Positions 2,803 to 27,863 of a DNA stretch of 64,000 nt are shown piece after piece; positions within the stretch are counted from its first letter, which is position 1; each line of letters opens with the position of its first letter. The notes under the pieces are model-generated. The model was not told the origin of the DNA and did not search any database. It was given only the letters and a program-made list of their open reading frames with translations. Both the position numbers and the translations under genes were made by a program. The stretch covers positions 213,077 to 277,076 of the forward strand of contig CAZYXJ010000001.1 of assembly GCA_964651115.1 (NCBI GenBank). Reading direction: 5' to 3'. This DNA comes from an uncultured Candidatus Saccharibacteria bacterium. Its GTDB lineage: Bacteria; Patescibacteriota; Minisyncoccia; Phycocordibacterales; JACOZG01.

Positions 2803-3450
2803 TTAGGCAGCCGTGGCGGCCTCCTCGCCCTCCTCCACCTTCTTACCCTTCTTCTCAACCTCGATGGCCGAGAGATCAACTGGCGCCGTCTCAATTGGCT
2901 CATCCTTCGCGACAGCAATCGAAGCCACCACCTCCTCCGGGGCACTGAGAACCGTCACATCTTTGGGTACGCTCAAGTCCGAAACCAAAATTTGGCTGTC
3001 CAAAGAAACTAATTTAGAAATATCAACCTCAATATCGTGAGGAATGTTCATTGGCAAAACTTCTACTTCCAATTCGTAAAGCACCTTAACCAAAGTACCA
3101 CCGAGATCCTTAACGGCGGAGGCCACGCCCTCGAAGCGGAGGGGCACATTAACCTTAACCGTCTTGGTCTTATCGACAGCGTAGAGATCGGCGTGCAGAG
3201 GCTCGCCGCTCACGGGATGAACCATCACGTCATGGATCAAAACGTCGGCCTTAACCTCGCCGGCATCAATCGTTACCATACTCGACTCACCAGCCGTGGC
3301 GAGCAATTTTTTGAACTCCTTAGTATTAAGAAGAAGAGAGGTGGTCTCCTGCTTAGGACCATACAAAACCGCAGGCATTTGACCAGCTAATCGGACACTC
3401 TTGAGCTTTTTGCCGAAGACAGAACGCTTTTCGGCCATAATTTTTTGCAT
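2803..3450 (-). CDS. rplY: 50S ribosomal protein L25/general stress protein Ctc
   Basis: GKKLKSVRLAGQMPAVLYGPKQ N-terminus plus an acidic C-terminal extension. The start could be ATG 3438 instead. Confidence 0.85.
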   Translation of the reverse strand: MQKIMAEKRSVFGKKLKSVRLAGQMPAVLYGPKQETTSLLLNTKEFKKLLATAGESSMVTIDAGEVKADVLIHDVMVHPVSGEPLHADLYAVDKTKTVKVNVPLRFEGVASAVKDLGGTLVKVLYELEVEVLPMNIPHDIEVDISKLVSLDSQILVSDLSVPKDVTVLSAPEEVVASIAVAKDEPIETAPVDLSAIEVEKKGKKVEEGEEAATAA

Positions 3451-3497
3451 GACAGATAGTATAGCGAAAAGCGGCCAGATGTCAAAATCAGTGGACC

Positions 3498-4475
3498 TTA
3501 AGCGGCCGTCACCAAATTGGGCGGCGTCTGGCCCGCCAGCGCCGCCAAAATATTGTCGGCCGCCAAACGAGCCATGTCGTCTCGGGTCTCAAAAGTAGCG
3601 GAGGCAATGTGTGGCGTTAAAACGACGTTAGGTAAATCCTTCAACCCCGCCGCCAGAGTGGGCTCATTTTCATAAACATCCAAGCCCGCACCGGCGATCT
3701 GGCCAGAACGCAAGGCCTCCACCAGCGCGGCCTCGTCAATCACCGGACCACGAGCCGTATTTACGATTACCGCACTCGGCTTCATTAACGCCAGCCGCTC
3801 GCGATTAATCAAATGGCGCGTCTCGGGCGTCAGATTAACGTGGAGCGAAACGTAATCCGCCACCGTCAACACCTCCTCCACCGTAGACTTAAACTCAGCG
3901 CCAAATTCTTTCTCAAATTCTTCGTTCCGCTTAACGTCAAAGTAGACCACCTTCATGCCAAAACCGCGGGACGCAAAGTGAGCCAACTTAGAACCAATCC
4001 GACCGGCGCCGACAATGCCAAGCGTCCGGCCATAAAGATCTGGGGTCAAAAAAATCATTGGCGCCCAGCCGACATACTTGCCGTCGCGGACAAATTGATC
4101 CGCCTCGACGATCCGCCGCCCCACCGCCACCAGAAGAGCCAAGGCATGCTCAGCGACGCTCTGACTGGTCGAGGGCGCGGGCGTGTTGGTGATCATCACG
4201 CCACGCTTTTTGGCCTCAACCAGATCAACGTTATCAAAACCCACCGCGTAGTTAGCAAAAATCTTCGCTGTCGGGACGGCCTCAAAAACTTCGGCATCAA
4301 TCTTGTCGGTCAAGAGCGGTAAAACGGCGTCATACGGCTTAGCCCGAAGCGCGGTTAATAACTCCTCGCGCGAGAGAAGGCCATCCTTAGGGCTCACGTC
4401 CACCTCGTGCCCCTTCTCGCGCAACATCTGTTCTGCCAAATCCGGAATTTTCCGGGTAATGTAAATTTTTCCCAT
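3498..4475 (-). CDS. D-isomer-specific 2-hydroxyacid dehydrogenase (glyoxylate/hydroxypyruvate reductase-like)
   Basis: Rossmann GIVGAGRIGSKLA, and RGPVIDEAAL...GAGLDVYENEP...PHIASAT catalytic-region pattern. Confidence 0.85.
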   Translation of the reverse strand: MGKIYITRKIPDLAEQMLREKGHEVDVSPKDGLLSREELLTALRAKPYDAVLPLLTDKIDAEVFEAVPTAKIFANYAVGFDNVDLVEAKKRGVMITNTPAPSTSQSVAEHALALLVAVGRRIVEADQFVRDGKYVGWAPMIFLTPDLYGRTLGIVGAGRIGSKLAHFASRGFGMKVVYFDVKRNEEFEKEFGAEFKSTVEEVLTVADYVSLHVNLTPETRHLINRERLALMKPSAVIVNTARGPVIDEAALVEALRSGQIAGAGLDVYENEPTLAAGLKDLPNVVLTPHIASATFETRDDMARLAADNILAALAGQTPPNLVTAA

Positions 4476-4487
4476 TTATTAATTGTA

Positions 4488-5504
4488 TCATAAGGATTCA
4501 ATTTTTCTTCTAAGTTTCCAACCATTGCCGTGATCCAATAAACCCAAATATGATTGAACTGTCTCCGACTTAACTCCTGCTTTATTTATCCGTTTAAACA
4601 TTCGTCGTCTTGTCATAGTCCGCAGAACACGATGTTTTGAAAATTGGACCCACCCTAGAAAATCAACACCAGAGGAAACTCGCTCGAGAAGAATTTTGTT
4701 GGGATGAAACTCTAACTTCAGTTTCTCTTTTAAGAATTCGGCAATTTCGGGTGCGAGCTTGACTAGACGATCTTTATCGCGACCAACAATGACAAAATCG
4801 TCCGCGTAGCGAAGATAATGCCTCGCTTTCAAGCTATGCTTCATAAACTGATCGAGCTCGTTTAGATAAACATTGGCAAAAAGTTGGGAAGTAAGATTAC
4901 CGAGAGGCAGGCCCTGGCCGGGTACGCCCGAATTAAAACTGTAAATTATTTTCTCGATCAGCCAGATAATACCCTGGTCAGGAATCTTTTTCCTCAATAA
5001 ATCGATCAGTATTGCTCGATCGATGCTAGCAAAAAATTTGCGAATGTCACACTTCAAAACCCAAACCATTTTGGTGTTGTTTCGAGAAAGCTTGGCCGTA
5101 ATTAGGGCAAATTTTTTAATTGCTTTGTGAGTACCTTTTCCGTTGCGACAAGAATAGGAGTCAGAAATAAATCTTGGATGGAAAAACCAGTAAAGCCGGC
5201 GATAAACGGCTCGATGTAAAACCCGATCACGCACGGATGCCTTATGGATCACTCGCCGCTTGGGGTCGTTAATGATGAAAACTTTGTAAGCCGAATGATG
5301 GTATGTCTTAGCCACTAAATCCTCGTGAAGTGAAATAATGTTGGCCATCAGGTTTCGTTCAAATTCCTGCACGTCTTTTCGATTCCGTTTCCCTCTCACG
5401 AATTCCTGCCAGGCCGCGAGCAGATTAGCGAGCGAGACGATATTGTCATATTTTATGGTAGGTGCTATCTTGGCCGAAAATGCTACCGGTAAGCCCCCCC
5501 CCAA
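4488..5504 (-). CDS. DGR-type reverse transcriptase
   Basis: RT motifs including YADDFVIV. Has LGNLTSQLFANVYLNELD (the [ILV]GxxxSQ variant typical of DGR RTs). Lies next to the TR/VR pair. The only in-frame start is TTG at 5504, inside a G9 run. Confidence 0.85.
   Translation of the reverse strand: MGGGLPVAFSAKIAPTIKYDNIVSLANLLAAWQEFVRGKRNRKDVQEFERNLMANIISLHEDLVAKTYHHSAYKVFIINDPKRRVIHKASVRDRVLHRAVYRRLYWFFHPRFISDSYSCRNGKGTHKAIKKFALITAKLSRNNTKMVWVLKCDIRKFFASIDRAILIDLLRKKIPDQGIIWLIEKIIYSFNSGVPGQGLPLGNLTSQLFANVYLNELDQFMKHSLKARHYLRYADDFVIVGRDKDRLVKLAPEIAEFLKEKLKLEFHPNKILLERVSSGVDFLGWVQFSKHRVLRTMTRRRMFKRINKAGVKSETVQSYLGLLDHGNGWKLRRKIESL
5494..5502. repeat. Homopolymer C9 (+) / G9 (-) tract at the RT start codon
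   Basis: Counted directly: aagCCCCCCCCCaacc. On the minus strand it reads TTG GGG GGG GGC. Confidence 0.9.
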
Positions 5505-5513
5505 CCGAAGTTA

Positions 5514-5906
5514 TTGCCTCTTTTGCAAAAGGTGAAGATTGCATACTTATTGTGGTATGAATATTACCAAATTTTGCCAAAAACACATCGACACTCACTC
5601 GGTAAGAAAATTGATACGTTGTGGATCGAGATTATCGAAGCCATTGCGATTGCAAGCTATTTAGGCAAAGGAGAGAAACAACCCTGGGTGAGATTGGCAA
5701 TAAGGAAAACTGATACACTCAAGATATTGCTCTTGGTACTTTGGGAAACTAAATCACTGGATAATAAAAAATATATCGCCCTGTCTTTACCCCTGGAGGA
5801 AATTGGCAAAATGCTTGGCGGTTGGAATGGGCAAATTTTGAGACAATTACAACAAGAACAATTAAAGAAAAACTCTCCCACCAAAGCAGGAGAGAAAATG
5901 AAGTGA
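5514..5906 (+). CDS. avd: Avd-like DGR accessory protein (four-helix-bundle, 23S rRNA-IVS protein family-like)
   Basis: 130 aa, all-helical pattern (KIAYLLWYEYYQILPKTHRHSLGKKID...IEAIAIASY...LKILLLVLWE...IGKMLGGW) with a basic tail. Wedged between RT and TR. TTG start at 5514, or GVG-type GTG at 5529. Confidence 0.7.
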   Translation: MPLLQKVKIAYLLWYEYYQILPKTHRHSLGKKIDTLWIEIIEAIAIASYLGKGEKQPWVRLAIRKTDTLKILLLVLWETKSLDNKKYIALSLPLEEIGKMLGGWNGQILRQLQQEQLKKNSPTKAGEKMK

Positions 5907-5907
5907 G

Positions 5908-6029
5908 TTGCGACGAAACGCAAACCAGTCATTGGAGTTACCGTAGTTCTCGAGCCAGTTGAGGTTCGCCTTGCGCCTCGAGTCGTTCCACCAAACGTTG
6001 CACGCCTGGCGATCGCCATCGAAGAAATA
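5908..6029 (-). repeat. DGR template repeat (TR)
   Basis: 122 bp matching 6408-6529. All 22 differences fall at its minus-strand adenines. In frame it carries seven AAY codons. Confidence 0.88.
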
Positions 6030-6275
6030 GTGTAAGGTGTCATCCGAGTCACCATCTCTTGTCGCCAACACAGGACGATTCGAGATCGAATATTATTCGG
6101 CATCTATAATGCCCTAGCACTCTACACCAAGTAGCTTCATTTTTTATTGAAGGATCTGCGTAAATCCTCCGTCGGAAATCGTAATCGCCGACGCTCTCAA
6201 TTTACAGACACTGGTTTCAGTAGCGAGCAACCCTGATCGCCCACATATTCACCTACTCCCGTCTTTAATTTTAGC

Positions 6276-6305
6276 AAAGAAAAATCCCACACGCGAAGTG
6301 TAGGA
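6276..6305 (-). terminator. Hairpin plus T-run downstream of the DGR target gene
   Basis: Minus strand: TCCTACAC-TTCGC-GTGTGGGA (8 bp, one G-U pair) followed by TTTTTCTTT. Lies 84 nt after the stop codon. Confidence 0.5.
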
Positions 6306-6388
6306 TTCCATTGTTTACGTTTTGGATTACGTTTGGCAAAAATTGCCGAAGAGCAAAATCCAAAGGATCTGAAAAATCTCCAAGGACC

Positions 6389-7048
6389 TTAGGCCTGAGG
6401 ACGAAGCTTGCGACGAAACGCAAACCAGTCACCGGAGCGACCGCAGACCTCGAGCCAGCAGAGGCGCGCCCCGCGCCCCGAGTCGCCCCACCAAACGCGG
6501 CACGCCAGGCGAACGCCAACGAAGAAACACTCCTTGGTGGCCACCACATACATCGGGTCTAATCCCAGTTCCCGATGAAGAGTGGGATAATGTTCGCCAA
6601 TAGCGAACACTTCTCGTGGGTCAGTGCGCTCGAGTCCGAACTGCTCCGCCCAAGCGATAGCCTTGCTCCAGTTGCCACCCCGTGGGAAGTTGAGAAGGAT
6701 GATTTCCTCCTCTTCTTCCACACCTTCTCCCGGCGGATACTGGTCGCCCACCTTCCGGACGTTGTAGTCCAAAGGAGTGTTGGGACCGGCGGCATTCAGC
6801 GCTTCCGACCACTTGCGTCCTTTGTTGAAGCGAACGCGGATCGTGTGGATGCGAGCGCCCGGTGGCGGGATAAGCGGTAAGCCAATGGTGATCGGTAGCC
6901 CAGCCTCGATTCCATCGAGAACACGACCCAGAGTTCCATCGTCAAGTGCCGTTTGCAGGCGGGCTCGACTCATCTTTTTGTCCCGTACCATTTGAACAAA
7001 CTGTCTTCCCTGACCATCGGTCGCGGTTACAACCTTTTCAGTGGTCAT
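6389..7048 (-). CDS. DGR variable (target) protein, C-terminal CLec/DUF1566-like variable region
   Basis: 219-aa ORF whose last ~40 codons are the VR. No N-terminal signal or TM segment. Scaffold reads ...VWWGDS...WFAFRR. Confidence 0.85.
   Translation of the reverse strand: MTTEKVVTATDGQGRQFVQMVRDKKMSRARLQTALDDGTLGRVLDGIEAGLPITIGLPLIPPPGARIHTIRVRFNKGRKWSEALNAAGPNTPLDYNVRKVGDQYPPGEGVEEEEEIILLNFPRGGNWSKAIAWAEQFGLERTDPREVFAIGEHYPTLHRELGLDPMYVVATKECFFVGVRLACRVWWGDSGRGARLCWLEVCGRSGDWFAFRRKLRPQA
6408..6529 (-). repeat. DGR variable repeat (VR)
   Basis: Copy of the TR offset by exactly 500 bp. 22 of 27 TR adenine positions are substituted and 0 of 95 other positions differ. Ends 17 nt before the stop codon. 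Confidence 0.88.
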
Positions 7049-15668: not shown

Positions 15669-16109
15669 TTAATGAAGTAGGGCCTTAAGCGCGGCTAGTG
15701 ACTTGGGCCACAGATCCTCAAACATGGGAGCATATTCGTCCGGGACGTCAATCAGCTCCACCACCAGCTCCGTACCGTCGCCGTGCTCGCGAAAAGTATA
15801 ATTTTCGTAAGCGACGTGGCCATCGGGCCAGGGCTTTTCCTCCCCCGCTATCACCTCGCCGTAATGCTCAATCGAGATATATTCGGGCGGCCGACTTTCT
15901 TTAATCCGCGAGAGCATCCCGCCCTCCACGCCCGTCTCAGGATGAGGGCCCAAAAACAACATTTTGCTACCCTCGCTCCAATCACCGCGGTAATACGACC
16001 CCTCGCAAAACACTTTGGTCCACTGACGATAGGTGGCATCCTCGAGCATTGTCTGCCAAACCTTTTCCCGTGGCGCCTCAATCTCAATCGAATATTTTAA
16101 ATTTTTCAT
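15669..16109 (-). CDS. SRPBCC/AHSA1-family protein
   Basis: IEIEAPREKVWQTMLEDATYRQW is a typical START/AHSA1-like N-terminus. Confidence 0.8.
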   Translation of the reverse strand: MKNLKYSIEIEAPREKVWQTMLEDATYRQWTKVFCEGSYYRGDWSEGSKMLFLGPHPETGVEGGMLSRIKESRPPEYISIEHYGEVIAGEEKPWPDGHVAYENYTFREHGDGTELVVELIDVPDEYAPMFEDLWPKSLAALKALLH

Positions 16110-16130
16110 ATATTTAAGTTACGGATAATC

Positions 16131-16439
16131 TCACTTTTTCTCCCAGCGATCTTTATCTCGACTATTCAACTTAGCCATCACCCGATCAAAGCCGCGATCC
16201 ATATCGAGGCCCAGAGAATTAGATAAACAGGTTAAAGTGAAGATAACATCAGCAACCTCTTCCTCAATATCCTGGACATCCTCAGTATCTTTTTTCTTTT
16301 TAGGACCAAAACGGTGATTTATTTCCCGAGCCAACTCCCCAATCTCTTCCGTCAAACGGGCCATTATTTCTAGGGGTTTAAAATAACCGATCTTATATTG
16401 TTGCACCCACCCCTCCACCTCTTGTTGGATTCTTTTCAT
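16131..16439 (-). CDS. MazG-type nucleotide pyrophosphohydrolase
   Basis: LTEEIGELAREIN...EEEVADVIFTLTCLSNSLGLD EExxE/D metal-binding pattern. Confidence 0.8.
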   Translation of the reverse strand: MKRIQQEVEGWVQQYKIGYFKPLEIMARLTEEIGELAREINHRFGPKKKKDTEDVQDIEEEVADVIFTLTCLSNSLGLDMDRGFDRVMAKLNSRDKDRWEKK

Positions 16440-16446
16440 ACGGCCA

Positions 16447-16890
16447 TTATTCCATATATTCTATTTCCAACCCAAGCCGCAGGGCCTGATCATGCTCCCA
16501 GCGTGCACCGACCGAAGACTGCCAATCAGGGAGAAAATACAACTTATGAACCAATTTAGACTCAAATATTGGCAAGTAAAAATCGATTAACAATAAGTCA
16601 TCGTAATGCTCAAACTCGCGTCGACTCTTAATGCGTTGCATCGGTACTTCAAAAGGAACTTGATCAAAAATCTCGATCCCTCTTTGTTGCAAACTAGCGA
16701 TCGTCACTTCGAATCGCTTTAAATTTTTCTCCACCGAACCAGCGCCACCGGTCGAAATCGGACCGCACACCTGGCCAATGGGTGGGGGCATTTTCCGCAA
16801 CACTTGTTCAGCAACAATAAAAAGATCCCGATAAGTCTCCGCTCGGTCTAAGCTGTCATAATGTTCTTGATCCCAATACTTAAGTGACAT
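16447..16890 (-). CDS. Nucleoside 2-deoxyribosyltransferase-like (DUF4406-like) protein
   Basis: VCGPISTGG...LPDWQSSVGARWEHDQALRLGLEI resembles the LPGWexSxGAxxE signature. Pattern-level call only. Confidence 0.5.
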   Translation of the reverse strand: MSLKYWDQEHYDSLDRAETYRDLFIVAEQVLRKMPPPIGQVCGPISTGGAGSVEKNLKRFEVTIASLQQRGIEIFDQVPFEVPMQRIKSRREFEHYDDLLLIDFYLPIFESKLVHKLYFLPDWQSSVGARWEHDQALRLGLEIEYME

Positions 16891-16903
16891 AAAATTGTAA
16901 ATT

Positions 16904-17305
16904 TTACCTTATTTTCTTAACGACGGTGCCGTAAAAAATTGATGATCTGGTCCTGGAACCACCCGACTCAAAACCCACGAAAAGGCTGGGGTTTTTTATA
17001 ACCTTGTAATAATCTCCTCTGAAATAAAAAGTTTCTTTTAAATTGAATCTTTCAGCATTATAAATCTCTTCAAAAACATAAACTCCCCCTCCACGAGATA
17101 ATGGCTCACCCTCAAGCACCGCCACCTCATCACTCGATTGATACATTTTTTGAGAGTCAAAAAACTCTATATCGCCAAAAGGAATACGATTCTTTACTTC
17201 AGCTAAAAACGTTTTCTTTATATTAACGTCAAATGCCCAACCCAAAGCAAGAATACCAACCGCAATAAAAAACGAAAATTTATGCCTCAAGATAAAATTA
17301 ATCAC
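16904..17305 (-). CDS. Membrane-anchored hypothetical protein (third gene of the TA-like operon)
   Basis: N-terminal TM segment FSFFIAVGILALGWAF. 4-nt ATGA overlap with the upstream ORF. Confidence 0.55.
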   Translation of the reverse strand: MINFILRHKFSFFIAVGILALGWAFDVNIKKTFLAEVKNRIPFGDIEFFDSQKMYQSSDEVAVLEGEPLSRGGGVYVFEEIYNAERFNLKETFYFRGDYYKVIKNPSLFVGFESGGSRTRSSIFYGTVVKKIR

Positions 17306-17697
17306 AAAAAAGATCGATAATCGGGATAATTGGCCTTAATAATGGATCTCCATGCAGCCGTTTCATTCGTGCTGCCCAAATCACCCTTGGTATAAACTAA
17401 CAGAACGTGTACAGTGGCATTGCTTTTTTTGATAGCAATAATACACCTGTTACCCGAAGCGTGGCGCGACTTACCAGGTCCAGCAATCCGAAATTCCGTT
17501 TTACAAATCTTGACGTCGCCAGCATCACAAATTATCTCCACACGACTATTAACACCGATCAGTGATTCTATACGTTTAAATTGCTCCGCAATAGCATTCC
17601 ATGTAACATCCCAAGCATTTTTATACTTCTTCTTAAATTTTGAGATGTAGTGTCGGTCGGCAAATTTTTCGACAATAACCGCATAACTAGTAGACAT
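17302..17697 (-). CDS. Candidate toxin, RelE/ParE-fold-like
   Basis: 131 aa. C-terminal pattern CKTEFRIAGPGKSRHASGNRCIIAIKKSNATVHVLLVYTKGD resembles RelE/ParE beta-sheet cores. 11-nt overlap with the upstream HTH-DUF4065 gene. Confidence 0.5.
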   Translation of the reverse strand: MSTSYAVIVEKFADRHYISKFKKKYKNAWDVTWNAIAEQFKRIESLIGVNSRVEIICDAGDVKICKTEFRIAGPGKSRHASGNRCIIAIKKSNATVHVLLVYTKGDLGSTNETAAWRSIIKANYPDYRSFL

Positions 17698-18370
17698 GGT
17701 CCGGATTTTCCTGTGTGATTAGTTCGTAAGGAATAGCCTCGTCCGGCGCACACAGCTTGTACGGAAGCTGTTCATGAGTAAAATCAACAATTTCCTTAGT
17801 TCTTTTATCTTTCCATTTTGTGGAAATCTTTTTCATAAGTTCAACCTCTTCGCCCTGCAGAAGATCAAGCTTTTGACGGAGGGCTCCTGCACCAATTGAC
17901 ACGAGCATTGCGTCACCCTTGCGGTCTATTGTGATCTTCCCCTCATCTTCAAGTTCGTCAATCGCACGGAAATACGGATCGGGTACCGGACCGTAGGCAC
18001 GACGTAAGTACTGCATTCCGCTCATGCTTTCTAATTTTTCGTAATACCAAGCAAAATCGGCAAGGTAGAGAAGCTTTGCGAGTTTTGTTTTTGGCACCCG
18101 CCCATCAGTTGATGCAGGAAATTTAAGATACGCAATAATCATCTGCTTGTATTTTTCATACTGTGGAGCTGTTACTTTTGAAAGTTCTTCGATTGAAATA
18201 CCATACAATTCGCATAGTTTTTCTGCTTCCCGTAACGTCATTTCGCGTATTCCACGCTCTACGGCCATATAGGATTGGCGCGAGAGTCCAAGTTTTTCGG
18301 CTACTACTAACTGCGAAATACCCCTCTTTGTTCTAAGGGCTTTTATAAATGATGCGTATTTGGTGCTCAT
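17687..18370 (-). CDS. HTH-XRE plus DUF4065 (Panacea) domain antitoxin-like protein
   Basis: Start moved to ATG 18370. XRE HTH (LRTKRGISQLVVAEKLGLSRQSYMAVERG), then KTKLAKLLYLADFAWYYEK...YLRRAYGPVP, a DUF4065/SocA-like pattern. Confidence 0.78.
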   Translation of the reverse strand: MSTKYASFIKALRTKRGISQLVVAEKLGLSRQSYMAVERGIREMTLREAEKLCELYGISIEELSKVTAPQYEKYKQMIIAYLKFPASTDGRVPKTKLAKLLYLADFAWYYEKLESMSGMQYLRRAYGPVPDPYFRAIDELEDEGKITIDRKGDAMLVSIGAGALRQKLDLLQGEEVELMKKISTKWKDKRTKEIVDFTHEQLPYKLCAPDEAIPYELITQENPDHVY

Positions 18371-18387
18371 GTCTAAAGTGTACATAA

Positions 18388-18412
18388 CCTGTGTATAAAA
18401 TACAAACACAGG
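18388..18412. promoter_or_regulatory. Inverted repeat upstream of the HTH-Panacea operon (candidate operator)
   Basis: CCTGTGT-N11-ACACAGG, 18-42 nt upstream of the ATG at 18370. Confidence 0.3.
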
Positions 18413-18499
18413 GTGTTGATATTCTATACACGCTCGTGGTAAAATTGTTGCACTGGACTAGTCGAACCAGCAGAAAAATAAACTTAATACCTTAGTACT

Positions 18500-18622
18500 A
18501 TGGCAAAAACCTCAAAAAAGGCCGGTAGGGCTGCATCAAAAGTGTTGCGGAGCAAAAGTGCAGGAAAAAATCCAAAGATAGCTGCCGCTTCTGCATTGCG
18601 ACAGCGTCAAGACCGCCAATAG
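18500..18622 (+). CDS. Small basic ORF, 40 aa (doubtful)
   Basis: My own translation: MAKTSKKAGRAASKVLRSKSAGKNPKIAAASALRQRQDRQ*. Below the track cutoff and no clear Shine-Dalgarno. Confidence 0.2.
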   Translation: MAKTSKKAGRAASKVLRSKSAGKNPKIAAASALRQRQDRQ

Positions 18623-18727
18623 AGGCTAACTTGAGCAAAAGTTACTGGCTTATAGAGAGCTCGCGGAGAAAGAGAATTGATTGGGTTACAGCCATTCACT
18701 AACAGCCCTAGAAAAGTATGCCTCGCT

Positions 18728-18760
18728 CACACAAAACCGCACAATGTGCGGTTTTGTGTT
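18728..18760 (-). terminator. Terminator hairpin after the RM gene
   Basis: CACACAAAACCGCAC-AAT-GTGCGGTTTTGTGT. The stem contains A/T runs, so it could act in both directions. Confidence 0.6.
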
Positions 18761-21700
18761 ATAAGGCCACCTCATCAATTTCTCTCATAATTTTGTCTGT
18801 TTCCACCAAAGCAACAATAATTTTTTGATAGTGTTCAATATCGCCATTTGAAAGCATGCGACCCTTGCGGTCTTTCAACCACTTCTGCGCGGGTTGGTAG
18901 CCGCCGATGTAGAACGACCATGCGATCTCGGGGACGTTGCCAAAATACTGCGTTGCGTTGATGTATACACTGTCGCCCTTGCGAGTGATTTTCTCTACCT
19001 TGTTCGTGCCGACCTCGGGGTAGGTAGTGATGGGGGTGCGTACCGCCGCTGATTCGAGCAGGTGAAGTTCCCGGAGTTGTTTACCGAGCGCCGCGAGTGC
19101 GGCGAACTGCGCCTTATCTTTCGGATATGGGACGCGGGGGAAATCTATTCTAAGAAACTCCTTGTACTTCTCACGGTAGTTTGGTGAGTGCAGAACGGCG
19201 TAGACATAATCAAAGATATCCTCGGGCGTTGGTTCTTTTCCGACCAAAGAGGCAATCTGCTTCACAATGTCGCGGTTGAGGTTCGGTACACGAGTGCCGT
19301 CCCCCGCGTGTAAATAAAGTGGGACGTTCATGGCGTTTGTGGCTGTCGTTCCAGACAAGAATATTGCTTCGGAAATGGTATTTGTAACAAAGACGTGGTT
19401 GTAGTCAGCATCGCGGACGCTTTTTGTGACCAAAAGTCCGAGATTAGATCCTTGTAGGTAATGCTTCATTATTTTGTCTACCGGACGCCAAACTAGCGAT
19501 GAGTGGTAAAAGATCAGACGATCATCAAAAGGACGATATGCGATCTCTTTTACAAAGTTCGATAATTCATTTTCTTTCCGCAAAGCATCTCGAGCTTTCA
19601 ACGCATCCCAACCTTTTTTATCGCTGATACCAACCTCGGCGCACAATGCCCTTTGTGTGTTTGTTGTTGAGTTACGGAAACGTTCCGCGTTGGAAGCAAG
19701 ATTCTGGGTGTCACTGCCAATAACAAAGGCGTCTCTGGCTGTAACCACCCCATTCCCGTTTTCAATAAAGAGGTCTTTGATAGAAATGTTTTTTATGTAT
19801 TGAGCTTTTGTTTTCTCATCTCGCACTGTCCATTCGTAGTTTTGCGACTTGGGAGCGAGCTCGTGCCAGTGCATGGAGCCAAGTTCCATTTCATTGAGAC
19901 ACTCGAACTTCGTTCGCTTCGTTCCGAAACAGTCGGCGCGATAGACGTTGGCGAGAGAGCCCGAGCGTTTTCCTTTGCGGCGTACGCCAATAAGAATCGA
20001 GACGCCCTGTTTGATAGCGAACACGTTTTCATCTTTGCCACCATCGGGGGCTTTTTCTTTCTTGTTGGAATTTCCGTGGAGGTCGAGAACGTAAATCTCG
20101 CTGAACGTCTCCATGAGGTGATAGCGCATACCCCGAAACGTTGGGTTGTCGATGTACCCGTGTGCAGTAATCATTCCGACAATACCCTCACCGGTTTGTT
20201 CGATAAGACTCTCGGCGAAGCGAATGAACTTCACGTAGTCATCGTTTATCCATTTGCTGTTGCGTTCTTTGAGCTTTTGCGAAGTACCCGGCTCAACCTT
20301 GTAGACATCGTGCCCTGTGTACTCCTTGTTACTTGACTCTCCTGCGTAGGGGGGATTTCCTATCACAATCATTATCGGTGTGTCGTTCTTGATGCGAGCA
20401 GCGGCACGACTCTCCTCACTAATACTCTGTGCGAGACCGAGCATGCCAAAGAGCGAATCGTCAGGGCGCTCCGCTTTCTCAAGAGAGTTCGTGAGATACA
20501 CGCCGATACGGTCTTTGAAATCTTTTGCACCGGACTCGCGGAGGGTGGCGGCAAGTTTGAGGTGAGCGATGGTATAGGGCGCCATCATAAGCTCGAAGCC
20601 GTGGAGACGAGGGAGGAGGTCTTCATTCACGTAGCCACTGAATCGTCCTTCCTGTCCGGCGAATGTGCGACGGATGAGACGTATCGTCTCGTTAAGGAAG
20701 GTGCCAGTGCCAGTTGCTGGATCGAGCACCTGCACTTTGTGAATGGTGTCCTTCACTTTCTTGCCCTGCACCATTCGCGTGATATCTATCTTCTTCGTGT
20801 CGGCGAGACCTTGGGGTAGGTCGAAGTCGCGTTTGAGAATGGCATCAACCGAGCGCACGATGAAGTGCACGACGGCGGGTGGTGTGTAATACGCACCAAG
20901 CTTCTTTCGCTCTACTGGGTCGTATGCTTTGAGAAAGTCCTCGTAAAAGTGGATGACAGGGTCGGGCGCCGCCTGTTCTGCGCCCCATAGGTCTTGCTTG
21001 TAAATCTGTTGCATGAGTGCGCGGACATTAGCGTTGCCGAACACTTTGCAGAGGTCGTCGACGATTGGCTTCAATCGGTCGTCAAAGTCAGCACCGGCGA
21101 TGTGGTCGAAGAAGCGACGCAGGAGAGGGTTTGAGTGCGGGATAAGCTCACGCGCTTCTGCTCGTGTGAAGTCTTTGGGGGATTCATCGTGATACCTCGC
21201 GACGAAAAGACCGTACACGAGCGTCTGCGCATACATGTCGGTGAAGTCGTCGAGCGAAAGATCGTGGATGAGTTGCGATTTGAACGCCTCGTAGATGTCG
21301 AGGAGAGGTTTATTCTTGGGACTATCCGTTTTAAGAAAGCGCAGCAGATTGGCGCGGAGGCGCTTGCCGTTCTCTCCCATGATTTCGGCGAGGCGGTTCG
21401 CACGGCGCACCGGCTCCGCCGCATCTTCGAGGAAGGCTCGAATTGTGGTTTCTAAAAGGGCATATGAGTTTCCGTCCGGTGAAAGTGTCTCAAGGTCACT
21501 TATTACGATGGGGTCGCAATACGCTCCGCCATGCTTGTAGAAGCGAAACTCGAGATAATTCGTAAGGATGAGGTTAGCATAGCCAAAGTAACGTTTGAGT
21601 TGTTCCCCCTTGACGATATCGTCGAGGTTCTCCCCGAGACGCTTGGTCTCGACATAGCCGACTGGAAATCCGCCCTTGATGAGGGCAAAGTCGGGGGCAC

Positions 21701-21863
21701 CAAACTCGATCTTTCCCGGCTCATTCACCGCGTCCACGTCGGGAAGCATTGCCTCAAGTAGCACCTTAAGTGCGGGGCGGTGCTGGTGTTCTAGATCTTT
21801 GGTACCCACGCTGGAAGTCGCACTACGAGTTCGTGCAATTGCAGAAAGGTATGTTTCTAGCAT
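18759..21863 (-). CDS. Fused Type IIG-like restriction-modification enzyme (PD-ExK nuclease + gamma-class N6-adenine methyltransferase + specificity region)
   Basis: Start moved to ATG 21863 (1034 aa). N-terminal PDFALIKGGFPVGYVETK (PD...ExK). Motif I VLDPATGTGTFL. Motif IV VIGNPPYAGES. C-terminal YAVLHSPNYREKYKEFLRIDFPRVPYP (YeeA / Type ISP C-terminal-like). Confidence 0.8.
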   Translation of the reverse strand: MLETYLSAIARTRSATSSVGTKDLEHQHRPALKVLLEAMLPDVDAVNEPGKIEFGAPDFALIKGGFPVGYVETKRLGENLDDIVKGEQLKRYFGYANLILTNYLEFRFYKHGGAYCDPIVISDLETLSPDGNSYALLETTIRAFLEDAAEPVRRANRLAEIMGENGKRLRANLLRFLKTDSPKNKPLLDIYEAFKSQLIHDLSLDDFTDMYAQTLVYGLFVARYHDESPKDFTRAEARELIPHSNPLLRRFFDHIAGADFDDRLKPIVDDLCKVFGNANVRALMQQIYKQDLWGAEQAAPDPVIHFYEDFLKAYDPVERKKLGAYYTPPAVVHFIVRSVDAILKRDFDLPQGLADTKKIDITRMVQGKKVKDTIHKVQVLDPATGTGTFLNETIRLIRRTFAGQEGRFSGYVNEDLLPRLHGFELMMAPYTIAHLKLAATLRESGAKDFKDRIGVYLTNSLEKAERPDDSLFGMLGLAQSISEESRAAARIKNDTPIMIVIGNPPYAGESSNKEYTGHDVYKVEPGTSQKLKERNSKWINDDYVKFIRFAESLIEQTGEGIVGMITAHGYIDNPTFRGMRYHLMETFSEIYVLDLHGNSNKKEKAPDGGKDENVFAIKQGVSILIGVRRKGKRSGSLANVYRADCFGTKRTKFECLNEMELGSMHWHELAPKSQNYEWTVRDEKTKAQYIKNISIKDLFIENGNGVVTARDAFVIGSDTQNLASNAERFRNSTTNTQRALCAEVGISDKKGWDALKARDALRKENELSNFVKEIAYRPFDDRLIFYHSSLVWRPVDKIMKHYLQGSNLGLLVTKSVRDADYNHVFVTNTISEAIFLSGTTATNAMNVPLYLHAGDGTRVPNLNRDIVKQIASLVGKEPTPEDIFDYVYAVLHSPNYREKYKEFLRIDFPRVPYPKDKAQFAALAALGKQLRELHLLESAAVRTPITTYPEVGTNKVEKITRKGDSVYINATQYFGNVPEIAWSFYIGGYQPAQKWLKDRKGRMLSNGDIEHYQKIIVALVETDKIMREIDEVAL

Positions 21864-21950
21864 GTTTTGAATTCCTGTATAAATAGCCTTCGGCCATATT
21901 ACCACCAAGCACAGGAGTTCACCACTCCAACGGCCCGGCTCTCTAAGTAA

Positions 21951-21982
21951 CAGAAAAGACCCTTGCTTAAAAGCAAGGGTCT
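21951..21982 (-). terminator. Rho-independent terminator after the PEP-CTERM gene
   Basis: Minus strand AGACCCTTGC-TTTTAA-GCAAGGGTCT followed by TTTTCTGTT. Confidence 0.6.
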
Positions 21983-22008
21983 TGATTAGCGATTCGGGGG
22001 GGTAAGAA

Positions 22009-22584
22009 CTACGTTTTACGCCGGCGGCGAGCGCACAGTGGCGCCGCCAACCCAAGGAGCACGAGGCTCGTCGGCTCCGGCAAGCCGGAGCCCCGAAGAA
22101 AGATGAGGTTGGTACGGAACTCGTCCGCACCAAACTCTAACCAATTCCCCACGGCGCTGGGGTCTGAACTCCAACTGAGCCGCTCCAACTGCAAGGCATA
22201 ATAGCCCGACAGTCGAGGCTCTAGCATCGCACCAACATGGAAGCGCCTCTTCTCCCCCTCCGCTATTAAGTAAAAGTCTTGCCCATCACTGGGGGAAGAA
22301 CTTGTACTCAAAAACGCCATCATCGGCGATCCTACCCCCGGGGTGGCGAAGTTGAAGAACGAATACTGGAGCAGCGGTGATGGCCTGGCGGACAGCCGTG
22401 GAACATAGACATCCCCGGAGATGGCGATGATATCGAACCACATCCGGAAGTAACCGATGCTCCCCTCCTCGAAGTCTTTCTGCCAGACTTCCGCCTGACT
22501 GGAAACCAACGTCGCCACCGGCGACGCTACCGCAACGGAACACGTCACCAACGCCGCCGCCACAAAGGAAAACAGACGGTTCAT
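22009..22584 (-). CDS. Secreted protein with C-terminal PEP-CTERM-like sorting signal
   Basis: Signal peptide MNRLFSFVAAALVTCSVAVA. C-terminus GSGLPEPTSLVLLGLAAPLCARRRRKT, i.e. PEP, then a TM segment, then a basic tail. Confidence 0.7.
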   Translation of the reverse strand: MNRLFSFVAAALVTCSVAVASPVATLVSSQAEVWQKDFEEGSIGYFRMWFDIIAISGDVYVPRLSARPSPLLQYSFFNFATPGVGSPMMAFLSTSSSPSDGQDFYLIAEGEKRRFHVGAMLEPRLSGYYALQLERLSWSSDPSAVGNWLEFGADEFRTNLIFLRGSGLPEPTSLVLLGLAAPLCARRRRKT

Positions 22585-22691
22585 TTTTAGCCCCTTTTTC
22601 TTTTTAAGGTCCTAGGAAAGTTGGCCCAACGCCAACTGACTGCTCAACTATATACTATATTTTCTATATTGTCAATAGGTAGGGATTCGAG

Positions 22692-23507
22692 CTATCGTTG
22701 AGCGTGTTTTAGGATCCATTTGGTGTGTTCGTTTTTGGACTTCGACCAAGCGGCAATGAGCTTTTTAGCTTCTTTTGGGTTTACCTTGACCCAGTCTCGG
22801 ACATGATTGGCGACTGATTTTTTGACAAATTTTATCTCGTCTTCTTTGAGTAATTCGAGGATTTCAAAAATTGGCTTTGGGTTCTCGTTCCACACATCAA
22901 GCTTCGGTGCCCAGGGTAGTTTGGGGCGAAGTCCTTCGGTTGCAAGTCGGCGGAGGTGAAAATTTTTGCTTTTTGCCCATTTGTTACATATCGCAAGAGT
23001 TTTCTCAGGATACTTACGAGCATACGGACGAATAGCATATTCTCCCGTGTTTCTTTTGGTAATTTCTTCGATAGCTTTTATTGACAGCGCAAAGTGATCA
23101 AGCCCGTATTTCTCGACAAATTTTCCAACCGGCATGAGCCAATAAAAATTAGTAAACATACCAGTTTCTTCTTTGTTTTCTGGCCCGAGTATTTGCAAAA
23201 GGATATCAAGTGCTTCCGGATATTTTTCTGGTAGATACTGCTTGAGTAGATCCGCAATGATTCCGATCCGTTGCGTGTAGCTCTTACCAACAACTGCTCG
23301 TTTAGTATCGCGAACAAAACCTTTCGTATCAAAATTTTTATATACGGCCGATATTTTCTCCGCAAGCATTACTGCCAAATCTTCTCCGAACACCTCCGTG
23401 ATTGAGATTCTGTCAGTCATTGCGGTGGATTCTGAAATTAGTTCGAACGGAATTCGCTCCTCGCCGCGCACACTAACAATTTTAAGTTTTTCTTTAGCGG
23501 AATACAA
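22692..23507 (-). CDS. DNA alkylation repair protein (HEAT-like repeat, AlkC/AlkD family-like)
   Basis: Pattern NTGEYAIRPY...FHLRRLATEGLRPKLPWAPKL...KFVKKSVANHVRD. Alternative start ATG 23420 (MTDRISI). Confidence 0.75.
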   Translation of the reverse strand: MYSAKEKLKIVSVRGEERIPFELISESTAMTDRISITEVFGEDLAVMLAEKISAVYKNFDTKGFVRDTKRAVVGKSYTQRIGIIADLLKQYLPEKYPEALDILLQILGPENKEETGMFTNFYWLMPVGKFVEKYGLDHFALSIKAIEEITKRNTGEYAIRPYARKYPEKTLAICNKWAKSKNFHLRRLATEGLRPKLPWAPKLDVWNENPKPIFEILELLKEDEIKFVKKSVANHVRDWVKVNPKEAKKLIAAWSKSKNEHTKWILKHAQR

Positions 23508-23600
23508 ATTCGAGCGTGCGAAGCACGCACAATTGTTCTTTTAAAAGAAAAGTGCCCAGACCGAAGTCCAGGCACTTGCACCATCAGTTGCTGTGATGTT

Positions 23601-24446
23601 TCAACGGGAGGATGGAACGAGCCGAAGCAACCGCACCGAGACGATCTCGTAGTTGAGAACACCGAGGAGCGCTCCTGCGATTGCGCCGATGATGGCACTG
23701 CCAAATGTGTAGCCGATGGCGGCACCGATTGTGGCATCGACGAAGCAGATCGTCCGGCGTTGTGAGTGAACGTACACGAACACACCAGCGACGAACTGCG
23801 CGAGGGCGCTCGCCACGCGGCGCACACCATTGATTGTCGCGGGCACTGCACGCGCAATCGCTGACGGTGTACGAACGGCGACCCACTTCAGTCCGCGAAT
23901 GACCGCAAGGGTTGCGCCGATTGGATTGCAGTGGAGAATAAACATCCACCCTATCTCGGCGATATCGCGGAGTCCCTGTTCGCGGTCTGCCGCATCTTTC
24001 GCGCCACTCGAAATGCTAACTGTCATGAACCACCCCAGAAGTGCGCCCATGACCGAAAAGACGAGCATTGACCAGAGCGTACCGACGAGAACCGGCACGG
24101 GATTGTCGCTGAAGTAAGCGAACGCGACTCCTCCAACGCCGACGATTGACGAGTACATCATGACGACACCTCCCGACATCACCACGAGTGTTTTCCACCC
24201 GTGCAAATCGGGACGCCACGCGATCGTGCGGCGGTAGGAATGGACGACACCGGCGCAGAAGTGCCGAAAGTCGATCGCGACATAAGCGGTGATACCGCCG
24301 ACCAAAGCGCCGAAAGCGCACAGATACGAGCCGTACTCGAATCGTGTCGAGATCTCGAGTGCGGTCAGGGTGCCGACCAAAGCGCCGAAAGCGCACGCAA
24401 GGGCGATTGAAAGCCAGTCACGTGTCATGTTCATTTTTACCTCCAC
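23601..24446 (-). CDS. Polytopic membrane protein, hypothetical
   Basis: At least 6 hydrophobic segments. GC-rich. Contains an in-frame 25-bp perfect direct repeat (24297-24321 and 24372-24396) that encodes CAFGALVG twice. Confidence 0.6.
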   Translation of the reverse strand: MEVKMNMTRDWLSIALACAFGALVGTLTALEISTRFEYGSYLCAFGALVGGITAYVAIDFRHFCAGVVHSYRRTIAWRPDLHGWKTLVVMSGGVVMMYSSIVGVGGVAFAYFSDNPVPVLVGTLWSMLVFSVMGALLGWFMTVSISSGAKDAADREQGLRDIAEIGWMFILHCNPIGATLAVIRGLKWVAVRTPSAIARAVPATINGVRRVASALAQFVAGVFVYVHSQRRTICFVDATIGAAIGYTFGSAIIGAIAGALLGVLNYEIVSVRLLRLVPSSR

Positions 24447-24647
24447 TTTTCAAGGTTCAATTTATCTAAGCAACGTGCCTAGATTTCGGAGCAATCATAG
24501 CATTATTTACCTAATACGTCAAGAAGCAGCGTTTAGCTGCTTCTTGGAAAAATTCAGAATGAAAAAATTTCTTTTTCGCCAAAAATCCCATACAAATTAG
24601 CCGCCGAGCGCAGGGAGGCGGGCAACTCGCATTTACAATTTCCTTTC

Positions 24648-24737
<90 letters not shown>

Positions 24738-26204: not shown

Positions 26205-27863
26205 TTAGTAATCCATCCCACCCATACCCGGATGAGCATGACCGCCGGCCGCGGCCGACTTCTCCTCCGGCTCATCAGTCACCGCCACCTCGGTGGTTAA
26301 GAGGATGGCCGCCGCACTGGCCGCGCGCTCGATGCCCGTGCGCGTCACCTTCACCGGATCAACGATGCCCGCCGCAAACATATCCGGCACAATCTCGTCA
26401 GCGTTAGCATCATAACCCTCATTGCCCTTGGCTGATTTGATCTTCTCCACAATCACTTCCCCATTATCTTTGCCCGCGTTAATGGCAATTTGTCGGAGCG
26501 GCGCCTCTAGCGCCTTAAGAACGATCTTAACGCCCGTAGCAAACTCGTCAGCAATATCGGGCGAGGTGGGCTTAAGCGTCTTACTACCAACCTTGGCTCC
26601 GGCCCGTACCAGGGCCGTGCCACCACCAGAGACAATACCCTCTTCGATGGCCGCCTTCGTCGCCTCGACGGCATCTTCGACTTTTAATTTTAAATACTTC
26701 ATCTCCGCTTCGGTCGAGGCGCCCACGCGGATCACGGCAACGCCACCCGACAACTTACCCAAGCGCTCCCGCAGCTTTTCCTTATCATAAGACGATTCGG
26801 TCGTCTCCAGCTGAGTCTTGATCTGGGCCACCCGCTCCTGGATGTCGGCCTTCTTGCCGGCCCCGCCCACGATCGTGGTGCCATCCTTAGTCGCCACCAC
26901 CTTGCGCGCTCGACCCAACTGCTTAAGCTCGACCGTTTCTAACTTCAAGCCCAAACTCTCCGAGATCAATTGACCGCCCGTCAGCGCGGCAATGTCCTCG
27001 AGCATCTCTTTGCGACGATCGCCATAACCCGGCGCCTTAATCGCGAGAGTGTGGAAGATTCCCCGGATCTTATTTAGCACCAGGGTAGGCAGCGCTTCGC
27101 CATCAACATCTTCCGCGATAATCACCAACTCTTTCTTACCGGTCTGGGCCAACTTTTCCAGCAGAGGCAAGATGTCTTTAATTGACGAGATCTTACGGTC
27201 GGTGATCAAAATTGACGCGTCATTATAGACGGCCTCCATCCGCTCCGAGTCAGTGATCATGTAGGGCGAAACGTAACCCTTATCAAACTGCATACCTTCC
27301 ACCAACTCACTCTCGACGCCAAAAGATTGAGACTCCTCCACCGTCACCACGCCGTCCTTGCCGACTTGCTCAATCGCCTCGGCAATAATGGCGCCAAACT
27401 CTTCGCTCTCCGCCGAGATGGCCGCTACTTGCCGGATCTCTTCGCTCGACTTAATCGGCTTAGCCAGTGATTTGAGCGCTTCCACTACTTCGCGCGCGGC
27501 GGCCTCAATCCCCAAGCGGACGCCCATGGCATTAGCGCCAAGCGTCGTCTTTTTAAAACCTTCTTCGATAATCGCCTGAGCCAAAACGACGGCCGTTGTC
27601 GTCCCATCACCGGCCATGTCGTTGGTCTTGCCGGCGACGTCTTTAATAATCTCCGCGCCCAAATTTTCGACGCGATTCTTGAGAGTAATTTCTTTCGCGA
27701 TCGAAACGCCGTCGTTAGTAATCGTCGGCGCGCCAAAACCTTTATCCAAAATGACGTTGCGACCCTTGGGGCCGATGGTAATTTTTACCGCGCTTGCGAC
27801 CGCGTCCACGCCCCGCTTAATCGCCTGCCGCGCCTCATCTCCGTACAGAATTTGTTTTGCCAT
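26205..27863 (-). CDS. groL: Chaperonin GroEL
   Basis: Full-length Cpn60 ([13 protein letters not shown], ...GGMGGMDY C-terminus). Confidence 0.96.

Follow-up and report, generated by a model that had tools for sequence, protein, structure and literature searches.

A family of PEP-CTERM proteins in Paceibacteria-type CPR bacteria: evidence for a native, probably surface-anchored protein and a search for its sorting enzyme

PEP-CTERM sorting signals have been described solely from outer-membrane-bearing bacteria that possess EPS machinery (Haft 2006, PMC1569441). For Patescibacteria (CPR), an outer membrane has been proposed to be absent. A gene for a 191-aa protein ending in such a signal, located in a 64-kb stretch of CPR-like DNA (64,000 nucleotides, in the following referred to as the window), raises the question of whether the signal is genuine, whether the gene is at home in its host, and what would read the signal there. 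An earlier note on this DNA had described the genome as CPR-like, and this assignment is borne out by GroEL (26205-27863), which shares 77% identity with a Saccharibacteria-labelled MAG, 72% with Vogelbacteria and 67% with Parcubacteria, and by the gene order RNase J, SBP5, GroES/EL, LemA, TPM and tRNA-Ser(GGA), which is common to Patescibacteria loci; a split transketolase is also present. Judged by GroEL identity and gene order, the window is CPR. The combination of outer membrane and EPS genes that marks the classical PEP-CTERM host does not describe this Patescibacteria window, in which no EPS locus was found.

The gene, its parts and its expression signals are arranged as follows.

22647-22675, minus strand: sigma-70-like promoter 5' of the PEP-CTERM gene (TTGACA-17-TATAGT, 11 of 12 consensus matches)
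22591-22596, minus strand: AAGGGG, Shine-Dalgarno-like, read from the sequence 6 nt ahead of the PEP-CTERM ATG
22009-22584, minus strand: PEP-CTERM coding sequence, 191 aa, with its stop codon at 22009-22011
22525-22584, minus strand: signal peptide, residues 1-20 (inspection; aligned N-termini; helix 4-12 in the model)
22090-22524, minus strand: beta-sandwich passenger domain, residues 21-165 (AF2 model; without Pfam or NCBIfam coverage)
22012-22083, minus strand: PEP-CTERM sorting signal, residues 168-191, composed of LPEP, TSLVLLGLAAPLCA (a 14-residue hydrophobic helix) and RRRRKT (TIGR02595; helix 171-189 in the model)
21956-21983, minus strand: intrinsic-terminator-like hairpin with a 12-bp stem (6 GC pairs) and a T-rich tail, 26 nt past the PEP-CTERM stop

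Going by these sequence signals, the gene is a self-contained, monocistronic unit with promoter, ribosome-binding site and terminator all its own, and single-gene operons are usual for PEP-CTERM proteins (Haft 2006, PMC1569441). Two other delimitations were rejected. In a Logan gene call, codon 12 serves as the start, but the upstream ATG has a Shine-Dalgarno sequence and a complete signal peptide; the ORF of the neighbouring restriction-modification (RM) enzyme, which apparently overlaps the gene, is over-extended, as its start is the ATG at 21863 and no real overlap exists.

Both ends of the protein conform to what the earlier note had proposed. The signal peptide, regarded there as cleavable, is by inspection of the signal-peptidase I type (MNR, a hydrophobic core, and AVA directly before S) and has equivalents in all 28 of 28 aligned relatives. 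A lipoprotein reading of the LVTC stretch was ruled out, since a Thr at position -1 would be unusual and the family does not conserve the Cys. The C-terminus reads GSGLPEPTSLVLLGLAAPLCARRRRKT, exactly as quoted in the note for its tripartite PEP-CTERM architecture, and it passes the HMM check: TIGR02595 (PEP_CTERM) scores 19.5 bits against a curated cutoff of 16 (E 1.3e-3 among 18,950 models), with residues 169-190 aligned to model positions 2-23 of 24. With the corresponding Pfam model, PF07589, the tail reaches 18.0 bits and so falls short of the gathering score (20.7); this model detects just 22% of TIGR02595 instances (Haft 2006, PMC1569441). By the same source, a PEP-CTERM tail consists of PEP, a 14-residue hydrophobic stretch and a basic cluster of five, and the present tail fits this definition with its near-invariant PEP, 14 hydrophobic residues and RRRRK, followed by T, at the extreme C-terminus. 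An LPXTG/sortase motif was not found, as TIGR01167 has no match at E<=10 and the sequence reads LPEPTS. Of the 301 ORFs (six frames, minimum 50 aa) in the window, this one alone carries a convincing P[EDST]P, hydrophobic and basic tail; the other match to the regular expression, in the ORF at 3401-3598, lacks a hydrophobic helix. It is likewise the only non-transporter in the window with a C-terminal transmembrane (TM) segment and a basic end. Both HMM and architecture thus assign the tail to the PEP-CTERM class.

When the protein was used alone in a word-indexed homolog search, the same organism only was returned, and a full HMMER scan of 1.84e9 representatives (threshold E<=1e-3) recovered 90 relatives. 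About 35 of the 90 are small (176-231 aa), align end to end at 20-39% identity and have the same architecture. The canonical (V/I/T)PEP, helix and RRR tail was detected by script in 34 of these; the 35th, P0048, bears the same PEP motif and a longer C-terminal extension that reaches beyond the scored segment. An alignment of 29 sequences has a mean column identity of 27%, and its only invariant columns are P169 and P171, with E170 and R186 conserved at 90% or more, which shows PEP to be under selective constraint; 11 of the 29 members reach TIGR02595 at E<=0.01. The remaining relatives range from 144 to 3340 aa, a few short fragments among them, and wherever the match is readable their C-terminal end is formed by this domain, without the tail. 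Since these larger relatives end in the domain and lack the tail, the latter is a separable module added to the domain.

The domain itself was confidently modelled (AF2; pLDDT 87, pTM 0.75 for the 191-aa protein) as a 10-strand beta-sandwich of ~145 aa. Its structure matches are generic only, of Ig-like or ApaG-like kind, no Pfam or NCBIfam model matches over it, and the passenger family is so far undescribed. Small PEP-CTERM families already named in NCBIfam (NF038129, PepA NF033554, THxN NF038125, FxDxF NF038126) are similarly built, with ~180-260 aa, a signal peptide, one domain and a tail. None of them, however, covers the beta-sandwich, and matches are restricted to the tail or far below cutoff: on the relatives, the named families mostly hit the tail and the last strand, all far under cutoff. 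For example, NF038129 (cutoff 65 bits) does not match the 191-aa protein and gives 16-22 bits on relatives, in the last 40-60 residues only. The beta-sandwich domain also closes proteins of 350-3340 aa (P0002, P0004, P0010, P0012, P0013 and others), in which Pfam domains are almost absent, with occasional PG_binding_1 or DUF4214. In P0002 (3325 aa) there are 25 separate matching stretches, the best to query residues 126-168, a pattern that suggests a repeat made from the last strands of the domain.

Where family members can be traced by their surroundings, they sit in several Paceibacteria lineages; most of the family lies on short metagenome contigs. Among the assemblies with family members are the Paceibacterota MAG with locus tags VJJ47_ (proteins HEY4507621-HEY4507719), GCA_964514835.1 (CAZERS01) and the metagenome assembly GCA_020049755.1. 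One member, in a MAG, has neighbours labelled Candidatus Paceibacterota by NCBI (L085). Two others (L092 and L093) lie beside TrpRS genes, all named top matches of which are from Nomurabacteria, Paceibacterota or Patescibacteria, and L091 and L093 have a common neighbourhood of M23, GluRS, MurG, FtsW, MraY, ScpB, ScpA and AspRS. A further CPR-like contig, L089, lies near oriC (DnaA, DnaN, YidC, RnpA) and encodes a short YidC of 249 aa that matches only CPR-type loci among the fetched GroEL loci. This contig harbours two different PEP-CTERM proteins within 4 kb.

L089, 1819-2529, minus strand: family member P0014
L089, 5300-5869, plus strand: P0112, an unrelated Gly-rich protein of 236 aa, 2.8 kb apart from the former

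The window contains a single such gene in 64 kb; classical PEP-CTERM genomes encode a median of 8 PEP-CTERM proteins (Haft 2006, PMC1569441). All seven family contexts examined are dense housekeeping neighbourhoods, and across them neither a conserved neighbour nor an adjacent exosortase was found; SpaA-like pilin-domain proteins adjoin one family member. Because ~40 other CPR GroEL loci are free of PEP tails, the trait is at best sporadic within CPR, as in other phyla. The earlier note had offered an unexpected sorting system in this lineage as one explanation, and this suggestion, in which the enzyme is putative, is strengthened by the recurrence of the family in other Paceibacteria with PEP as its sole invariant feature.

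Exosortases of the EpsH family are recognised by CxG, NxxR and HxxxG motifs and at least 8 TM segments. The absence of such an enzyme from the window, remarked on in the note, is confirmed for ~60 of its ORFs, in which Pfam or NCBIfam scans found no exosortase family. No exosortase was found either among ten multi-TM CPR ORFs, which proved to be YidC, UppP, ATP synthase subunit a, a CDP-alcohol phosphatidyltransferase, a flippase-like protein and similar proteins, or along a 49-kb Paceibacterota contig extended to its end. A screen for CxG..NxxR..HxxxG combined with TM segments, applied to fetched loci that total 1.5 Mb and sample a minor portion of any one genome, likewise yielded none. Of two candidates that it raised, one in L014 was a UbiA-like false positive, and the other, a 242-aa ORF from Gribaldobacteria, had no exosortase match.

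In view of the family and its hosts, we consider it probable that the gene is native to a Paceibacteria-type CPR host and encodes a small surface protein, exported by Sec and anchored at its C-terminus, which an exosortase-type enzyme with a gene elsewhere in the genome would process. The protein would be exported by Sec and cleaved by signal peptidase I after Ala20, which would leave the beta-sandwich outside the cytoplasmic membrane. The C-terminal helix would then tether the protein so that the Arg-rich tail lies in the cytoplasm and PEP on the external side of the membrane, where an exosortase/archaeosortase-like transpeptidase (Cys/Arg/His) would cut at or near PEP and hand the cleaved protein to a surface acceptor, e.g. 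a lipid, a glycan or the wall. Given the lack of an outer membrane proposed for CPR bacteria, the protein would end up on the cell surface, as in the PGF-CTERM/ArtA system, rather than in an outer membrane or EPS matrix.

The PEP-CTERM/exosortase system of Gram-negatives (EpsH, XrtA) shares with the present protein the tail length, the tripartite build and the TIGR02595 match, and its proteins equally combine an N-terminal signal peptide, a passenger without known homology and a single-gene transcription unit (Haft 2006, PMC1569441). By contrast, the host here is a CPR bacterium with a proposed lack of an outer membrane, the passenger family is undescribed, and the 64 kb show no exosortase, EpsI, PrsK/R/T or EPS locus and a single gene of this kind. 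The LPXTG/sortase system of monoderm bacteria has the same tripartite logic and belongs to the envelope type expected for CPR, but its LPXTG motif is missing here and the conserved P-E-P is set directly against the helix. In archaea, PGF-CTERM is a tripartite C-terminal signal that is processed by archaeosortase A (ArtA), an enzyme of the exosortase superfamily, in single-membrane cells whose products are anchored at the surface. For a cell without an outer membrane this system provides the best functional analogy, rather than the Gram-negative route, although the motif here is PEP instead of PGF, the host is bacterial and no ArtA-like gene was found in the sequence searched.

Alternatively, the tail could be a mere C-terminal transmembrane anchor, in a protein that is never cleaved and a lineage that has no dedicated sorting enzyme. 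The fruitless exosortase searches of the window, of the tested CPR ORFs and of the 1.5 Mb of screened loci would agree with this, as would the lone PEP-CTERM gene in the 64-kb window and the hydrophobic helix of the 191-aa protein, which is short and contains a proline. A passive anchor, however, leaves unexplained why the prolines of PEP are the sole invariant residues in the 29-sequence alignment, at identities of 20-35%, and why larger relatives possess the same C-terminal domain and no tail, which marks the tail as a separable module. We therefore regard this explanation as rather unlikely.

A second alternative retains the sorting step and assigns it to a CPR-specific enzyme unrelated to exosortases. 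Rhombosortase and myxosortase offer a precedent, as both derive from different families of intramembrane proteases, no recognisable exosortase turned up in the searched sequence, and the envelope, with its proposed lack of an outer membrane, differs from that of the classical hosts. By its position, an orphan membrane protein with ~7 predicted TM segments and host-like GC, two genes off, is the only local candidate for the enzyme. It belongs to a block of variable genes next to the tRNA-Ser, of which the following are relevant here.

17687-18409: HTH and SocA/Panacea antitoxin-like gene, preceded by small low-GC ORFs
18759-21863, minus strand: Type ISP restriction-modification enzyme, true start ATG 21863
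22692-23507, minus strand: AlkC-like DNA_alkylation (HEAT) protein, a low-GC outlier (GC 0.42)
23601-24434, minus strand: orphan 277-aa protein with ~7 predicted TM segments, host-like GC (0.59) and a GGAGG ribosome-binding site
24648-24737, minus strand: tRNA-Ser(GGA), at which the conserved CPR gene order ends and the variable block begins

The proximity of the orphan protein is suggestive at most. It has no Pfam or NCBIfam match, and its sole further occurrence was on a Logan contig of this organism, 1.2 kb in length; as an exosortase it was ruled out for want of family similarity. Several observations speak against a CPR-specific enzyme: homologs of the orphan protein are absent from the other family loci, no neighbour is conserved among the family members, and the tail is a canonical signal of the exosortase type. 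In sum, an unrelated enzyme appears to us quite doubtful, and we continue to prefer a native protein that an exosortase-type enzyme from elsewhere in the genome would process. Some Paceibacteria without an outer membrane might run a working PEP-CTERM pathway that places small beta-sandwich proteins on the surface, by means of either a highly divergent exosortase or an unrelated family of membrane proteins; we put this forward as a speculation with low odds. If true, PEP-CTERM sorting would also operate on a bacterial envelope of the monoderm type, and a novel sorting enzyme would be indicated. The finding of a conserved PEP-CTERM family in CPR bacteria, which are thought to be single-membraned and host-attached, is of interest, given that the signal had been defined as confined to outer membranes and EPS; we found no open-access literature that links exosortase or PEP-CTERM to Patescibacteria. 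It implies either that exosortase-type sorting takes place on monoderm-type bacterial envelopes, comparable to that by archaeosortases, or that CPR bacteria read the signal otherwise. The small and probably surface-displayed proteins, together with the new beta-sandwich domain that is also found in very large CPR proteins, are candidates for a role in cell-cell attachment.

A foreign origin of the gene was suggested in the earlier note on account of GC content; it would amount to a recent arrival from a diderm, exosortase-bearing bacterium, with a sorting signal lying idle in the CPR host. Numerically, the gene is indeed GC-rich compared to its neighbours (0.587 versus 0.42 in the AlkC-like gene and 0.51 in the RM gene), but the comparison is misleading, as host core genes span 0.51-0.60 (e.g. 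GroEL 0.559, TPM 0.598 and the neighbouring membrane protein 0.590). The outliers of the window are the AT-rich genes (AlkC-like 0.42, HTH-SocA 0.43, RT 0.43). In a likelihood comparison of codon usage, the PEP-CTERM gene fell in the core class (+0.117), the AlkC-like gene in the low-GC class (-0.194). The gene thus sides with the host core in GC and codon usage and not with the low-GC insertions, and a foreign origin is not supported by GC. No other gene in the window reaches its GC3 of 0.71 (host core genes 0.56-0.67), which could still speak for an acquisition, as could its position in the variable block at the tRNA-Ser with RM, antitoxin and low-GC AlkC-like genes, none of them conserved in relatives: past the same tRNA, the relatives L004, L007 and L010 have no homologs of the variable-block genes. 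Against it stand the good promoter, ribosome-binding site and terminator, the closest placeable relatives in other Paceibacteria, and the lack of an evident donor, since no relative in the 1.84e9 representatives exceeds 39% identity to the 191-aa protein. A recent foreign origin is, in our view, highly improbable. The variable block as such extends over 15669-24434, is rich in defence genes and adjoins tRNA-Ser(GGA), with the orphan 7-TM, AlkC-like, PEP-CTERM, RM and HTH-SocA/Panacea genes; an att-like repeat of the tRNA-Ser 3' end was not found in the window.

The check for chimerism that the earlier note had called for was carried out with Logan contigs of this organism, which are 1-3.5 kb long. 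One run supplied contig sequence for 20341-23679 and another for 23487-24675, in both cases 100% identical to the window, and jointly they connect the RM, PEP-CTERM, AlkC-like and membrane-protein genes to the 3' end of tRNA-Ser. With two independent assemblies tiling 20341-24675 in this way, local chimerism at the PEP-CTERM gene is ruled out. That a chimeric assembly or contamination would put the gene outside any CPR genome is extremely unlikely, since the uneven GC along the window (0.40-0.60), which might have hinted at it, is outweighed by this tiling and by CPR-syntenic genes on both flanks.

Several further features were observed in the window and among the loci compared. Between 43567 and 60252, there is an ABC transporter of the Liv type whose eight binding proteins, paralogs of the Peripla_BP_6 family, alternate with genes for four SAM methyltransferases and one cyclopropane-fatty-acid-synthase-like protein, and two TrmB regulators are also present; this region has a GC of 0.41-0.49, as against 0.51-0.60 in the core, and a distinct codon-usage class, and could be an acquired region, a fast-evolving region or an assembly join. 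Several GTDB representative MAGs titled 'uncultured Gammaproteobacteria' or 'Saccharibacteria' (loci L013, L030, L036, L038, L039, L068, L069 and L081) are closest to Paceibacteria-type CPR in GroEL and flanks; these record titles look unreliable for taxonomy. Finally, the window harbours a complete diversity-generating retroelement (4488-7048), made up of the RT (4488-5504, minus strand), a template repeat (5908-6027) and, in the C-terminus of a 219-aa ORF (6389-7048), a variable repeat (6408-6527); all 21 of the 21 mismatches between template and variable repeat fall on template adenines.
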